The notes under the pieces were generated by a model, which was given only the letters and a program-made list of their open reading frames with translations, searched no databases and was not told the DNA's origin. Position numbers and translations under genes: made by a program. From IMG/VR virus record IMGVR_UViG_2547132279_000012, positions 1-41,632 of that record: 41,632 nt of DNA; one strand, given 5' to 3'. Origin of the DNA: a virus. Its lineage: Duplodnaviria; Heunggongvirae; Uroviricota; Caudoviricetes. Below, in pieces: positions 36,486-41,632 of this stretch. Each line of letters starts with the position of its first letter. The first letter of the stretch is position 1.

Positions 36486-37018
36486 TATGCAGCCCTCACA
36501 ATATAGTTAAATGCAATATTCCTTGGTCGAACCCTAAAACCAGCCCCTGCGCCTGCTCCAATTGGTGGCAATTCGATAGAGGGGTATGCTGTTGCAGGGG
36601 AATATAAACCTTCACGGGAATCATAATCAGTCGTCATATAGTTAGACGTATTATCAGAAACAGTTTCTGTCGGTCTGGTAACCAGACGATAAGAGCCAGT
36701 GGTTGGTGACCTGACCAGACCAAAACTTTCAACCAGAGTGGCTTTTTGAAAGCTTAATAATCCCCGACCACTGTCAGCTCCACGCCCGTCATCCCAGCCA
36801 CGAATAAACTCACCACGTAAATCAGGCAATTTATTTGTCGGATAAGCCTTTGCCAGTTCCGGGTATTCTTCAGCAGAAAAAGCTGCACCGTTGCATTTCA
36901 GCCAGCCTGTCGGCGGAGTGGCTGAAGGCCATGGAACAGGGACACCAACAGGTAATGCCGAACCTTCTCCCAAACCAACGTTTATGAAAATGCAGAAATA
37001 ACGAGCAAATGGCATCAT
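36485..37018 (-). CDS. Alternative tail-fibre variable C-terminal cassette (silent in this orientation)
   Basis: Receptor-binding-type motif (PTGWLKCNGAAFSAEEYPELAKAY); crossover site at its FINVGLGE codons; no own promoter expected. Confidence 0.7.
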   Translation of the reverse strand: MMPFARYFCIFINVGLGEGSALPVGVPVPWPSATPPTGWLKCNGAAFSAEEYPELAKAYPTNKLPDLRGEFIRGWDDGRGADSGRGLLSFQKATLVESFGLVRSPTTGSYRLVTRPTETVSDNTSNYMTTDYDSREGLYSPATAYPSIELPPIGAGAGAGFRVRPRNIAFNYIVRAA

Positions 37019-37044
37019 TCCTGCTTTTGTCAGAGGGATCCACT

Positions 37045-37599
37045 ATGCTTATTGGCTATGTACGCGTATCAACAAATGACCAGAACACCGATCTACAACG
37101 TAATGCGTTGAACTGTGCAGGATGTGAGCTGATGTTTGAAGACAAGATAAGCGGTACAAAGTCCGACAGACCAGGACTGAAAAAGCTGCTCAGGACACTA
37201 TCGGCAGGTGACACGCTGGTGGTCTGGAAACTGGACCGACTGGGGCGCAGTATGCGGCATCTTGTCGTGCTGGTGGAGGAGTTGCGCGAACGAGGCATCA
37301 ACTTTCGTAGTCTGACGGATTCAATTGATACCAGTACCCCAATGGGGCGCTTTTTCTTTCATGTGATGGGTGCCCTGGCTGAAATGGAGCGTGAACTGAT
37401 TGTTGAACGAACAAAAGCTGGACTGGAAGCTGCTCGCGCACAGGGACGAATTGGTGGACGTCGTCCCAAACTTACACCAGAACAATGGGAGCAGGCCGGA
37501 CGATTAATTGCATCAGGCGTTCCTCGCCAGAAGGTGGCGATCATCTATGATGTTGGTATATCGACACTGTATAAGAAGTTTCCGGTCGGAGATAAATGA
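37045..37599 (+). CDS. Serine DNA invertase (Pin/Gin/Hin/Cin family)
   Basis: MLIGYVRVSTNDQNTDLQRNAL... resolvase/invertase N-terminus with catalytic Ser and C-terminal HTH; near-identical by recall to e14 Pin. Confidence 0.9.
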   Translation: MLIGYVRVSTNDQNTDLQRNALNCAGCELMFEDKISGTKSDRPGLKKLLRTLSAGDTLVVWKLDRLGRSMRHLVVLVEELRERGINFRSLTDSIDTSTPMGRFFFHVMGALAEMERELIVERTKAGLEAARAQGRIGGRRPKLTPEQWEQAGRLIASGVPRQKVAIIYDVGISTLYKKFPVGDK

Positions 37600-37659: not shown

Positions 37660-38529
<870 letters not shown>

Positions 38530-38610: not shown

Positions 38611-38660
38611 GACCGGTCTCGAAACCCGTAGCCACGTCGTATGCAAGAACGTGCTACGAC
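38611..38660. repeat. Right copy of the direct repeat bracketing the GIY-YIG gene
   Basis: See the left copy; lies in the promoter-side intergenic region of the minus-strand gene. Confidence 0.5.
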
Positions 38661-38906
38661 TGGCTGGTGAACTTCCGATAGTGCGAGTATTGAATGATTT
38701 CCAACTGTTATCGATTTTGCGTATTTTTTGCATGAGAGGATTTTTACCTCCTCCCACCGATCCTCCATGGCTTTACGCCAGTGTCTCTGGTCTGCTATGT
38801 ACCAGAAGCGGAAGTTGTGTCTGTTAGTATGATATTATAATTACACTCGCTTATAATAAGCCCACAATACAGATATAAAAATATCTCAACGCTTGGGAGT
38901 TAACAA

Positions 38907-39818
38907 ATGATTAACTTTACTGAAATTGATAGTGACGGTGAAGCCTGGGAGTCATTTGCCCGTGATTTTCTTGAAGAACTTGGCTTTTATATTGAATCCG
39001 CGCCAGATAGAGGTGCAGATGGAGGTAAAGATCTTTTAATCACAGAGCAATTGCAAGGTCAGTTAAATAAATATAAATTTCGTTGGCTTGTTAGCTGTAA
39101 ACATTATGCAACAAGTAAAAAATCAGTTTCAGAAAAGGATGAGATTAATATACAAGAACGTATTGATGGATTCAATGCCGACGGATTTATTGGATTTTAC
39201 TCAACACTGCCAAGTAGTGGTTTAAATTCAAGAATGACGCAATTAAAAGAGAATGGAAAAATAAAGGACTTTCGATTCTTTGATGGTAAATTAATTGAAA
39301 ATCACTTAGTCAGAATTGGTTACTCAAAACTACTCCTTAGATACTTTCCTGAGAGCTATAAAAAAATAAAACCCAAGCATTTGATTTTTGATAAGTACTT
39401 ACCTATAAAATGTGATCGTTGTGGAAAGGACTTAATAGAAAACCATCATGAAGAAAATTATGATGGCATTGTGTGCAATGCAGAGATCATACACGATGAC
39501 AAACCAAATGAGGTGATAGCGGTTTATTATGCGTGTAAAGGTGATTGTGATAAGCATTTTGAGGATTATTTTTGGAATGAATATAAAGCGATTACGAGAT
39601 GGCAGGATATAAGTGATCTAGCCATCCCATTATTCTATCTCAAATGGATTATGGGGACATTTAATGAACTTGAGTATGGAAGGAAAACATATACCAAAGA
39701 AGCCTTCAATAAAACAAAGGAGATAACATTAGCGCTATCTCAAATTGTTATGAGAGAAATGACAGAAAAAGAAAGAGAAAGAGTGATGGCTTTGAATTCA
39801 CTACCTGATTACATATAA
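38907..39818 (+). CDS. Mrr-cat-like PD-(D/E)xK nuclease-domain protein with C-terminal Cys-cluster domain
   Basis: FEEFARDFLEELGF...DRGADGGKDLLI...RWLVSCKHY matches the restriction-endonuclease (Mrr_cat) signature; CDRCGK...C...CKGDCDKH Cys cluster; very AT-rich. Confidence 0.65.
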   Translation: MINFTEIDSDGEAWESFARDFLEELGFYIESAPDRGADGGKDLLITEQLQGQLNKYKFRWLVSCKHYATSKKSVSEKDEINIQERIDGFNADGFIGFYSTLPSSGLNSRMTQLKENGKIKDFRFFDGKLIENHLVRIGYSKLLLRYFPESYKKIKPKHLIFDKYLPIKCDRCGKDLIENHHEENYDGIVCNAEIIHDDKPNEVIAVYYACKGDCDKHFEDYFWNEYKAITRWQDISDLAIPLFYLKWIMGTFNELEYGRKTYTKEAFNKTKEITLALSQIVMREMTEKERERVMALNSLPDYI

Positions 39819-40024
39819 ATTATATTTACTAACATTTGAACTAGCGCATCTTTGGTGCAGAGACACCACCATCTTGGGGACACTGTGAGGCCACTGGCTT
39901 CCCAACTTATCGTTATACAGGATAATAAGGTGCTCCAGGGTGGCTATGAACTTGATGTTACGTCTGCGATTTGCTCATAAGGGACAACCATACTCAAATC
40001 TCCCACATTGCAGGAGATTTGAGT

Positions 40025-40627
40025 ATGAACACGTCACCGTGGAACAAAGACCGTATCATCGGCCAAAAAAGACCACTTCAGATATCTCATATCTGGGGGA
40101 TCCGAATCCGGCTTGAACTGGAAGGTAAAACGCGCGATTTAGCTCAGTTCGATATGGTCCTGGACAGTAAGCTACGAGGCTGTGATCTGGTCAAACTCAA
40201 AGTATCTGATGTTGCATATGGTAGCTCTGCTTCAAGCAGAGCTACGGTGCTGCAACAGAAAACCGGTAGCCCTGTGCAGTTTGAGATAACCAAAGGGACA
40301 AGAGAAGCTGTTGCTGCATTGATAATGCTTGGCAATTTGCATAGTAAAGACTTCTTGTTTCGGTTTCTGGTCGGAACTAATCAGCTCATATCTACCCGGC
40401 AATACAACCGAATTTTTCATGGGTGGGTAGAAAAGCTTGGTCTCGAAGATTCGCTTTACAGCACTCATTCCATGAGAAGAACAAAACCTTACCTGATCTA
40501 CAAGAAAACCAAGAATCTTCGGGTGATCCAACTTCTGTTGGGCCATAAGAAACTGGAAAGCACAGTCCGTTATCTGGGTATTGAAGTAGATGATGTGTTA
40601 GAGATCTCTGAATCGATTGAAGTCTAA
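40025..40627 (+). CDS. Short tyrosine recombinase (catalytic domain only, about 200 aa)
   Basis: LRGCDL (Arg box), HSMRRT (H-x-x-R), LLGHKKLESTVRYL (His, Tyr); start taken at the ATG preceded by AGGAG inside a 13 bp inverted-repeat hairpin. Confidence 0.65.
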   Translation: MNTSPWNKDRIIGQKRPLQISHIWGIRIRLELEGKTRDLAQFDMVLDSKLRGCDLVKLKVSDVAYGSSASSRATVLQQKTGSPVQFEITKGTREAVAALIMLGNLHSKDFLFRFLVGTNQLISTRQYNRIFHGWVEKLGLEDSLYSTHSMRRTKPYLIYKKTKNLRVIQLLLGHKKLESTVRYLGIEVDDVLEISESIEV

Positions 40628-40750
40628 GGTTGTCAGGGCTGCAACAACAGCCCTGTGCCAGGAGTTGACACTGTTAGCATCGCGCTATGTTAATCTATGT
40701 TGAGCAGTTAAAAATGATAATGTAGTTTATATGGATAATCAGTTTATAGA

Positions 40751-41632
40751 GTGGGTGAGATGGAACTAGATGAAACACTTGAAGTTATCAAAAATAATTT
40801 TAGTAATAATCAGAAGAAACTATTTAAAAGGATTGAGCCAGCCACTAACCGTCAAGTAGCTATCGGTCTTATTAGTTTACAAGGAGTGGAAAAAACATCT
40901 CAGGCTGAGATAGAGGTAATTGCCGGCCTCATATCTCAGTTTAGTCCATTGGAAATCGATAGTTTTCAAAATTCACCACGACGAATAACTCTGAAAGGTC
41001 AATTCCCAAACGGACATATTGTTTATATCGAGCCTCAGTATAAGGTTGGCAATATAAACCCAAAAGCCCAGCCTTGGGCAATAGACCTTGTCCTTAGACT
41101 AAATAGATGGATTGGTCAAGATTTGGTTGAGATTGCTGCTATTGGCATCGAGTATGATGGCCACATAGCTCATTATGTGGAAAGTAAAATTAAGTCTACT
41201 TACAAGCGTGATGCAGTAATAACTAGTAACGAAGGATTTCAATCGATTAGGATCTCACCAGAACAATGGAAATCGTCTAAAGAGGATCTTAAGAAGGCAA
41301 TTAAAAAGTATTTTGAACATCACATAAAAAAAATTGAAAAAGTTCAACTAAGCACAATAAACGCCCAAAATTTCAACAATTTTATTTATGAAAATGAAAA
41401 TGAAGTGATATCCACTGTAACTTGCCCTTTATGTAATGGAAAAGGCAGTTTAGCGGGAGAAGATTGTCCGATCTGTAATGGAATGGGATCCGTAAAAAGA
41501 TATATTGCTGCAAAGGTGAATCTTTCTAATTATGAAAAATTCACTTGTCCTGACTGCAGGAATATAAAATTAGATTGCAGAACCTGCAATGGTGAAGGAT
41601 CAATTAGCAGAGAAAAAGCATTAGAAATGTAA
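40751..41632 (+). CDS. DUF559/Vsr-like endonuclease-fold domain fused to a DnaJ-type CxxCxGxG zinc finger
   Basis: AIDLVL...IGIEYDGHIAHYVESKIKSTYKRDAVITSNEGFQSIRISPEQW fits the DUF559 pattern (vD...iEvDG..H...D..RD..L..G..vlRf...e); C-terminal CPLCNGKGS, CPICNGMGS, CPDC, CRTCNGEGS; AT-rich. Confidence 0.55.
   Translation: MGEMELDETLEVIKNNFSNNQKKLFKRIEPATNRQVAIGLISLQGVEKTSQAEIEVIAGLISQFSPLEIDSFQNSPRRITLKGQFPNGHIVYIEPQYKVGNINPKAQPWAIDLVLRLNRWIGQDLVEIAAIGIEYDGHIAHYVESKIKSTYKRDAVITSNEGFQSIRISPEQWKSSKEDLKKAIKKYFEHHIKKIEKVQLSTINAQNFNNFIYENENEVISTVTCPLCNGKGSLAGEDCPICNGMGSVKRYIAAKVNLSNYEKFTCPDCRNIKLDCRTCNGEGSISREKALEM

Follow-up and report, generated by a model that had tools for sequence, protein, structure and literature searches.

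A 200-residue tyrosine recombinase made up of a catalytic domain

The viral sequence IMGVR_UViG_2547132279_000012, analysed here over its full 41,632 nucleotides (hereafter the window, to which all positions refer unless another sequence is named), carries an open reading frame (ORF) for a 200-residue tyrosine recombinase that is flanked by two classes of short site, which we call T1 and T2, and that is preceded by a hairpin over its ribosome-binding site and start codon. The sole Pfam match of this recombinase was Phage_integrase (PF00589; residues 35–184, E = 2e-14, 54.2 bits against a cut-off of 27.1), and the PHROG 216 integrase was matched at E = 1.6e-25. Residues R51, K79, H148-x-x-R151, H174 and Y183 were invariant across a 15-sequence alignment and lined up with the motifs of XerD. 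When the family profile was compared with the PDB, XerD was the only match, with residues 36–185 of the recombinase corresponding to residues 131–279, i.e. the catalytic domain, of XerD. Because this alignment covers the catalytic domain alone, with only about 12 residues ahead of its start and family members measuring 196–212 amino acids, the core-binding domain present in "simple" tyrosine recombinases (e.g. Xer, Cre) is absent.

A reading made earlier from the letters of the window (referred to as the sequence-only reading) had described a catalytic-domain-only tyrosine recombinase of FimB/FimE size, and the complete 200-residue ORF with its XerD catalytic-domain alignment bears out that description. 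The kinship with Fim-type switches that it had drawn from this size found no support at the sequence level, as BLASTP against one FimB sequence yielded no alignment at E ≤ 100 and no Fim model was found among the NCBIfam matches at E ≤ 0.01. The best NCBIfam match was a XerA/integron-integrase model scoring 46.7 bits against a cut-off of 220, with no integron-specific model matching, and none of the PADLOC models matched the recombinase.

A protein search with the recombinase returned about 8000 clusters at 90% identity. Nearly all of the clusters listed were 200–203 amino acids long and 73–93% identical to the window protein, and they originated from Escherichia, Pectobacterium, Proteus, Providencia, Pantoea, Idiomarina and Pseudoalteromonas, among others, while clustering at 50% identity gave 301 representatives at E ≤ 1e-30. 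Taking one genome per species, at least 80 loci in Gamma- and Betaproteobacteria were found to encode homologues of 195–216 amino acids with 57–96% identity. A length of 200 residues therefore being the norm of the family, a 5′-truncated remnant of a longer integrase, which the sequence-only reading had itself raised as the alternative, was ruled out, and the recombinase is a complete member of a very widespread 200-residue family across Proteobacteria. The gene was present in 896 of 5426 complete Escherichia coli genomes (~16%), mostly as a single copy, and the ~700 bp of DNA around it (from 39962/39973 to 40660/40670) was found in 654 plasmids at 92–96% identity, 546 of them from Klebsiella. 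The genes on either side differed in every context inspected and included restriction endonucleases, HNH nucleases, an hsdR-like gene, DUF4145, DUF6530 and hypothetical proteins.

Within the recombinase ORF itself, a perfect 12-bp palindrome was observed at 40221–40245 (GTAGCTCTGCTT c AAGCAGAGCTAC, encoding ...GSSASSRAT...), of which other recombinase alleles have an imperfect form with the core CTCTG...CAGAG.

Two classes of 24-bp site bracket the recombinase gene and neighbouring cassettes

Conservation upstream of the recombinase gene starts abruptly at A-A-C-GTCYGC-nnn-TCGCTCA-TAAGGGAC (39962–39985). A census of 26 gammaproteobacterial loci yielded a 24-bp consensus of GTCYGC-n3-TCGCTCA-n2-GCRGAC for this site (T1) and of GTCYGC-n3-GTGCCA(G/A)-n2-GCRGAC for a second 24-bp site (T2). 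Both have 6-bp inverted arms in common (GTCYGC ... GCRGAC) around different 7-bp centres (TCGCTCA in T1, GTGCCAG in T2). T2 also approximates the reverse complement of T1, the two cores being the two orientations of an 8-bp TGWGCSAG with two positions different. T1 and T2, which flank both the gene and the neighbouring cassettes and were missed by the sequence-only reading, are the likely candidates for recombination sites.

The window runs from T2 through a restriction-endonuclease cassette to T1, the recombinase gene, a further T2, a zinc-finger ORF and, just outside, a further T1 (Table 1). The recombinase gene here fills the linker slot of one junction, in the order T1, hairpin, ORF, second hairpin and T2.

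Table 1. Positions of the sites, hairpins and genes of the cassette array
Feature	Position	Strand	Description
T2	38790–38813	+	GTCTGC tat GTACCAG aa GCGGAA; opens cassette 1
Cassette 1 cargo	38907–39818	+	Mrr_cat-type restriction-endonuclease-like ORF, 303 amino acids
T1	39962–39985	+	GTCTGC gat TTGCTCA ta AGGGAC; closes cassette 1, opens recombinase module
Hairpin	39989–40027	+	15-nt arms 39989–40003 and 40013–40027; loop 40004–40012 (9 nt)
Recombinase ORF	40025–40627	+	200-residue single-domain tyrosine recombinase; catalytic R51, K79, H148, R151, H174, Y183
Post-stop hairpin	40634–40655	+	CAGGGCTG caacaa CAGCCCTG, just after the recombinase stop codon
T2	40646–40669	+	AACAGC cct GTGCCAG ga GTTGAC; closes recombinase module, opens cassette 2
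Cassette 2 cargo	40751–41632	+	Weak REase_MTES_1575-like region and DnaJ-type CxxCxGxG zinc finger
T1 closing cassette 2	L001 15167–15190, 34 bp past the window end		GTCTGC ttt TCGCTCA ta ACAGAC; TGTCTGcttttcgctcataaCAGACA

At the first T2, the flank that the window has in common with other strains extends through the 7-bp centre, and cargo-specific sequence follows right after. Cassette 1 has a strong promoter-like site of its own (38829–38857). The T1 that follows it starts 63 nt upstream of the recombinase ATG; its centre, TTGCTCA, departs from the family consensus TCGCTCA, and its inner arm has the form usual in recombinase modules, AGGGAC. The T2 behind the gene has a degenerate outer arm (GTTGAC vs GCGGAC), and the 3′ arm of the post-stop hairpin doubles as its inner arm. 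The structure of this second hairpin, and not its sequence, is kept across lineages (L018, L024–L027, L029–L047). The inner arm of T1 (TAGCGAC) recurs as the 5′ arm of this hairpin in Pseudomonas-type loci, which makes a third arm-like element. The cassette 2 ORF matches the C-terminal part of the PADLOC candidate PDC-M01B and is plausibly an uncharacterised defence gene.

The sites are strongly directional. In 301 kb of loci oriented by their recombinase gene, 35 T1 sites were found on the plus strand and 2 on the minus strand, with 19 and 1, respectively, for T2 and 0 in shuffled sequences; T1 had the same orientation in every enteric or gammaproteobacterial locus examined. The spacing from T1 to T2 was exactly 42 bp in 34 of 48 junctions, resulting in a 66-bp T1–18 nt–T2 element with the consensus AAcGTCCGCTtcTCGCTCAcAGCgGACCTTcagctCagTtAGcttGTCCGCTttGTGCCAGgAGCGGACgTT. 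Cargo units run from T2 to T1, and successive units are joined either by this 66-bp junction or by a recombinase module.

Other recombinase lineages have other centres, namely TGGCCGG/CCGGCCA in the Pseudomonas type, where near-perfect inverted repeats (up to 20/20 matches) surround the gene, and GGGTCGG/CGACCC elsewhere. Site sequence thus goes with recombinase lineage. In three Pseudomonas-type loci (L039, L037, L047) the gene is flanked by near-perfect 18–20-bp inverted repeats with identical centres, and inversion of the gene or its cargo may occur in these lineages.

Homology breaks at the sites in related loci and the P2 Z region

The window and two further loci (L003, L004) have a common left flank that is ~97% identical through the T2 centre, after which each continues into different cargo. 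Recombinase modules, in turn, are alike from the T1 centre to the T2 centre, and their similarity ends at the 3′ edge of the latter. The restriction-endonuclease cassette of the window is ~91% identical to a cassette lying between T2 and T1 in the Z region of phage P2-EC67, with similarity beginning in T2 and stopping in the left arm of T1. In phage P2 (L413, NC_001895, ~15335 and ~17432), fun(Z) is located between T2 (GTCCAC tct GTGCCAA aa GCGGAC) and T1 (TTCCGC ttc TCGCTCA aa GGAAAC), so that the classic Z/fun hotspot of P2 is a T2–T1 bracket. The two phages have the same backbone and common backbone halves of both sites, with a different gene in between.

At these places in P2-EC67, around the restriction-endonuclease ORF that also occurs in the window, GenBank entry AJ512685 has a left and a right inverted repeat annotated, which are drawn as 90–113 bp, and names no recombinase; the locus and the flanking repeats are the same as T2/T1 here. 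A 2004 paper by Nilsson, Karlsson and Haggard-Ljungquist (Mol Biol Evol 21:1) reportedly deals with these inverted repeats of the P2 Z region, and its title proposes site-specific recombination. The sites are therefore likely to be already known from P2 Z-region work, while our search of the literature, in which the defence islands of E. coli, the hotspots of P2 and the classification of tyrosine recombinases were covered, found no published description of the recombinase or of T1/T2 as sites.

In IMG/VR, exact T1 and exact T2 sequences each occurred at at least 120 loci, where roughly 1–2 matches were estimated by chance, and the usual arrangement was T2, 1–2.5 kb of DNA and T1 on one strand. 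We delimited 160 T2-to-T1 units with a median length of 1.5 kb, among which 16 cargo families were recurrent. Recurrent cassettes had 0.9–1.0 of their interior 11-mers in common and 0.0 of those in the flanks (L119/L005, L119/L152, L126/L154, L245/L130). These comparative data point to exchange of the neighbouring genes as cargo, as the sequence-only reading had considered. Its other proposal, phase variation by inversion, is not borne out by them, as each of the 16 recurrent cargo families was found in a single orientation. Over all cargo ORFs, 95 had one orientation relative to the sites and 61 the other.

The cargo often consists of anti-phage defence genes, with matches to DRT reverse transcriptases, PD-T7-1, PD-T7-5, PDC-S06, HEPN, TIR, Mrr, RelA/SpoT and Lit peptidase; transporters, LysR regulators and EAL proteins were found in addition. 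Some arrays hold two recombinase genes, a few kb apart and in the same orientation (L008, at 6001 and 9856; L037, at 5971 and 9715), and the pair in L008 represents different lineages that are ~80% and 94% identical to the window protein.

A covarying hairpin covers the ribosome-binding site and start codon

The hairpin between T1 and the recombinase gene has arms CATACTCAAATCTCC and GGAGATTTGAGTATG that pair perfectly over 15 nt, making it longer than any other perfect local inverted repeat in the 41.6-kb window (the sequence of 39980–40030 being ...caacCATACTCAAATCTCCcacattgcaGGAGATTTGAGTATGaac). The Shine-Dalgarno sequence AGGAG is located at 40012–40016, and the ATG at 40025–40027 lies within the right arm. 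The sequence-only reading had noticed 13 bp of this repeat and rightly placed it over the ribosome-binding site, but the right copy of the 13-mer is found at 40013–40025 rather than 40012–40024, the repeat extends to 15 bp, and the hairpin includes the ATG instead of abutting it. The RNA fold of 39962–40060 was predicted at –32.3 kcal/mol (z = –4.4 vs shuffles). No further copy of the arm or of the 13-mer was found in the window with up to 3 mismatches, nor of the arm in the array.

Hairpins with a 3′ arm overlapping positions –15 to +3 were sought in 75 distinct leaders of the family, with 772 other ORF starts from the same loci and chimeras joining the left half of one leader to the right half of another as controls. 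A perfect arm of at least 6 nt was present in 49% of the recombinase leaders vs 8.8% of the control starts, and one of at least 7 nt in 32% vs 3.5% (Mann-Whitney p = 1.8e-17). Mean pairing probability from –14 to +3 was likewise higher in the recombinase leaders (0.68 vs 0.51, p = 3.5e-20). With G-U pairs allowed, arms of at least 7 nt were found in 48% of real leaders vs 18% of chimeras, and arms of at least 8 nt in 31% vs 7%. The real leaders thus surpass the chimeras, which means that their arms co-vary beyond the common CTCC/GGAG core.

The leaders contained 48 distinct arm pairs, whose sequence varies by lineage while complementarity is kept (e.g. ATCTCC/GGAGAT, ACTCC/GGAGT, GTTCTCC/GGAGAAC, GTCCTCC/GGAGGAC, CCTCCA/TGGAGG, TCAGACTCC/GGAGTCTGA and ACACTTCTCCCG/CGGGAGAAGTGT), and in L004 and L032 single transitions keep G-U pairs in the arms. 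Constant across lineages is a core of Shine-Dalgarno and anti-Shine-Dalgarno sequence at a fixed distance from the start codon, with an extension that covers the AUG; a conserved upstream CAT stands opposite the start codon and is replaced by CAC where the start is GTG. Because the arms co-vary, tolerate G-U pairs and have this CAT facing the start, the hairpin appears to be an RNA structure in which the Shine-Dalgarno sequence and the AUG are sequestered. It is best read as a translational throttle acting in the mRNA rather than as a recombination site, these being the two roles between which the sequence-only reading had left the choice. The comparative leader data support the former, and the latter is disfavoured by arms that vary by lineage while keeping their complementarity to the Shine-Dalgarno sequence and AUG, and by the lack of partner copies.

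Other roles for the hairpin were considered as well. An intrinsic terminator was rejected, as no T-run follows the hairpin and the terminator scan made no call on the plus strand. An IS10-like promoter within the hairpin, with CAnnCT as –10 element, was rejected as well, with no –35 element and no promoter-scan match, the invariant CAT being better explained as anti-AUG. A search of Rfam with the hairpin leader gave nothing above noise.

Since neither a terminator nor a convincing promoter was found between the upstream restriction-endonuclease gene and the recombinase gene, read-through transcripts would carry the full hairpin. In the mRNA, the upstream anti-Shine-Dalgarno/anti-AUG strand would pair with the ribosome-binding site and start codon, and transcripts with the whole leader, including those reading through from the upstream cassette, would be translated at a very low level and keep the recombinase scarce. 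Such an arrangement resembles the fold-back inhibition of IS10 and IS50 transposase, in which an upstream complementary strand also hides the ribosome-binding site and start codon, so that read-in transcripts are poorly translated. However, the own promoter of IS10/IS50 starts within the pairing region and thereby escapes it, whereas no convincing internal promoter was found here.

A probable cassette-capture system with its own recombinase

Taken as a whole, these data suggest that the ORF encodes the dedicated recombinase of a cassette-array system that would work like an integron or like a natural form of recombinase-mediated cassette exchange, a reading to which we assign a probability of roughly 0.6. 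Recombinase monomers would be bound to the 6-bp inverted arms, with strand exchange taking place across the 7-bp centre, which is taken as the overlap region because homology is lost in or beside the centres. With centres that differ, T1 would pair with T1 only and T2 with T2 only, following the logic of heterospecific lox and FRT sites. Excised circles would then carry one T1 and one T2 and might insert at any matching site, or, alternatively, a double exchange might swap cargo between replicons. Most cassettes would depend on a recombinase acting in trans. Given its degenerate sites and several substitutions of conserved residues, the copy in the window may be weakened.

Integrons likewise combine a tyrosine recombinase with arrays of short cassettes that are separated by imperfect palindromes of about 60–70 bp (the T1–18 nt–T2 element measures 66 bp and can be folded as one long hairpin). 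Many of their clusters lack a recombinase in cis, as in CALINs (clusters of attC sites lacking integron integrases), and defence genes are frequent cargo. In contrast to integrons, the 200-residue recombinase lacks a core-binding domain and has no room for the IntI-specific insertion, scoring far below the cut-offs of integron and Xer models; the junction consensus lacks the GTTRRRY core of attC; and the recombinase gene is co-oriented with the array and placed inside a junction, whereas IntI is divergent from the attI/Pc platform. There are moreover two site classes with different centres here, and cargo lies in either orientation and presumably has its own promoters, unlike promoterless integron cassettes.

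The pdif (dif) modules of Acinetobacter plasmids use 28-bp XerC/XerD sites (11-6-11) and the housekeeping recombinases of the host. They too are bounded by short sites in alternating inverse orientation, and the same module occurs in different plasmids with breaks at the sites. By comparison with the dif consensus, the sites here are different in having 24 bp, 6-bp arms and no relationship in sequence, and one of the modules consists of the gene for a dedicated recombinase. Engineered lox or FRT cassette exchange uses two site variants with the same binding arms and incompatible spacers to bracket a swappable cassette; it is artificial, whereas the natural counterpart proposed here is deduced from site anatomy and breakpoints. 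FimB and FimE match the recombinase in size (~200 amino acids) and in consisting essentially of the catalytic domain alone, yet no invertible promoter segment is present here, the sites flank whole genes and recurrent cargo was never seen inverted. The system would hence be one of cassette capture that has neither the IntI signature nor the attC core of integrons nor a Xer-type site, and whose recombinase gene is placed differently.

Several observations weigh against this interpretation. Among the matches listed, a recombinase gene was present in the stretch examined at only 2 of 203 site-bearing viral loci. Given this figure and the presence of the gene in only ~16% of E. coli genomes, the proposal must suppose that the recombinase acts in trans. 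The E. coli copies are 90–95% identical rather than near-identical and, from these identities, would not seem to reflect recent self-spread. The link between recombinase and sites is drawn from fixed adjacency and lineage-wise co-variation only, and an AlphaFold2 model built from the 15-sequence alignment had a mean predicted local distance difference test score of 38.6, too low for use. In many betaproteobacterial loci a simple ungapped test revealed no flanking inverted repeats above background, and the sites are accordingly claimed for the enteric, Alteromonadales and Pseudomonas types. When an "empty" docking site, with a T2 centre beside a T1 centre, was sought, matches were at chance level.

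The substrate itself may be either duplex sites or an attC-like folded, single-stranded 66-bp junction. The bottom strand of one junction was predicted to fold into a long hairpin (–18 kcal/mol, z = –4.3), and over 39 junctions the bottom strand was slightly more stable (–14.5 vs –13.4 kcal/mol, p = 0.014), with the long T1:T2 hairpin being the minimum-energy fold in ~45% of junctions on either strand. As for the throttle, RNAalifold on a MAFFT alignment of 40 leaders returned no consensus structure, owing to register errors.

Alternative explanations

The same anatomy could belong to a selfish element, in which the recombinase module, with T1/T2 as inverted ends, and the 66-bp doublets would be mobile in the way of an insertion sequence and its miniature derivatives, much like RAYT/REPIN. 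Such an element would insert into short palindromes (GTCCGC-n5-GCGGAC) between acquired genes, so that cassettes would be nothing but the DNA between insertions and cargo turnover a by-product. T2 approximating the reverse complement of T1 does give the gene and the doublets terminal inverted repeats, joining both ends of a cassette would yield exactly this simple palindrome, junction modules are found with different cargo to either side (L257 vs L259), and two recombinase copies are present in some arrays (L008, L037). However, near-identical cargo in unrelated flanks, with breaks exactly at the sites, argues that the cargo moves too; the mostly single E. coli copies, at 90–95% identity, are unlike an actively spreading insertion sequence; and no uninterrupted target sites were identified. 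We therefore consider this explanation improbable.

Less probable still is an invertase that would flip its own gene or the adjacent cargo between opposed T1 and T2 as an on/off switch. Its appeal lies in the FimB/FimE-like size and single-domain architecture, in the mutual inversion of T1 and T2 (with near-perfect repeats and identical centres in the Pseudomonas type) and in the 95 vs 61 split of cargo orientation. Spacer mismatches between sites normally block strand exchange, as known from lox and FRT spacer variants, and the enteric centres differ at 2 of 8 core positions. The sites are nearly always co-oriented with the recombinase gene, and neither the recurrent cargo families, none of which occurred in both orientations, nor the comparison with FimB and the Fim models favours inversion. 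We hold it equally hard to maintain, and if anything harder, that the 15-bp palindrome would act at the DNA level, as an operator or a recombination site for the recombinase or for a repressor dimer. It is perfect and the longest in the window, and palindromic operators would likewise hold their inverted symmetry as protein specificity drifts. Against this stand its constant part, which is the Shine-Dalgarno/anti-Shine-Dalgarno core at a fixed start-codon distance with an extension over the AUG, arms that are complementary only via G-U pairs in L004 and L032, and the lack of a second copy in the window or array, while the homology breakpoints are already explained by T1 and T2.

A different question is whether the family and the system are real and the copy in the window alone is a relic, inactive and fixed in place. 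This we regard as unlikely but as the most serious of the alternatives. The sites of this copy depart from the consensus, with TTGCTCA for TCGCTCA in the T1 centre and GTTGAC for GCGGAC in the outer arm of T2. The protein carries L41Q, N43D, S114F and R115L at positions that are invariant in the 14 other aligned sequences, as well as H121L where 13 of these 14 have His, and at an identity of at least 99% this allele was found in 7 genomes only, all with the same array. On the other hand, the ORF is full-length, all catalytic residues are present and the hairpin is perfect.

Implications for anti-phage gene turnover

The defence-gene hotspots of P2-like and other prophages show rapid turnover, the mechanism of which is usually left open or ascribed to homologous recombination between conserved flanks. 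We see about even odds that T1, T2 and the recombinase make up a previously unrecognised integron-like gene-capture system, widespread in Proteobacteria and their plasmids and prophages, in which a minimal 200-residue tyrosine recombinase and two heterospecific 24-bp sites would be the mechanism behind anti-phage gene turnover at phage hotspots including P2 Z/fun. A site-specific cassette system, if true, would explain the base-precise boundaries, the presence of the same cassette in phages, plasmids and chromosomes, and the many clusters without a recombinase. It would then form a second family of cassette-capture platforms beside integrons, and the T2...T1 bracket would provide a simple signature for mining new defence genes. 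The hairpin would be a clear example of restraint on a recombinase at the level of translation. As a tool, cassette exchange might also profit from a recombinase this small and from sites that are short and heterospecific by nature.

Surroundings of the array

Upstream of the array, a GIY-YIG gene on the minus strand (37660–38484) corresponds to PD-T4-3, an anti-phage system (E = 3e-140). The slot that it fills, flanked by the Pin invertase and the array, is occupied in strain S56 by a DUF4145 gene and is therefore variable too; no T1 or T2 sites were found around it. The Pin/Gin-type serine invertase itself (37009–37599) lies beside two sets of tail-fibre assembly and tail-fibre C-terminal genes in opposite orientation, and this region (35883–37599) is a standard host-range inversion switch of the Mu/e14-type tail module.

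A conserved non-coding stretch of ~100 bp (38621–38729) recurs at 89–91% identity in lambdoid phages, among them HK97, HK106 and Stx-converting phages. Its place in HK97 is just before the sib site and attP. PGAP labels the stretch as a "capsid protein" fragment. Together with the next 80 bp, it makes up the left flank of the array that stays constant in several E. coli strains.

On the other side, about 250 bp separate the end of the array from the 3′ portion of a tRNA gene, probably thrW (L001 15420–15500 onward, ~250 bp past the window end). Past this tRNA gene follow a truncated integrase gene and the vat autotransporter island, so that the prophage and the vat island appear to be arranged in tandem at one tRNA site.

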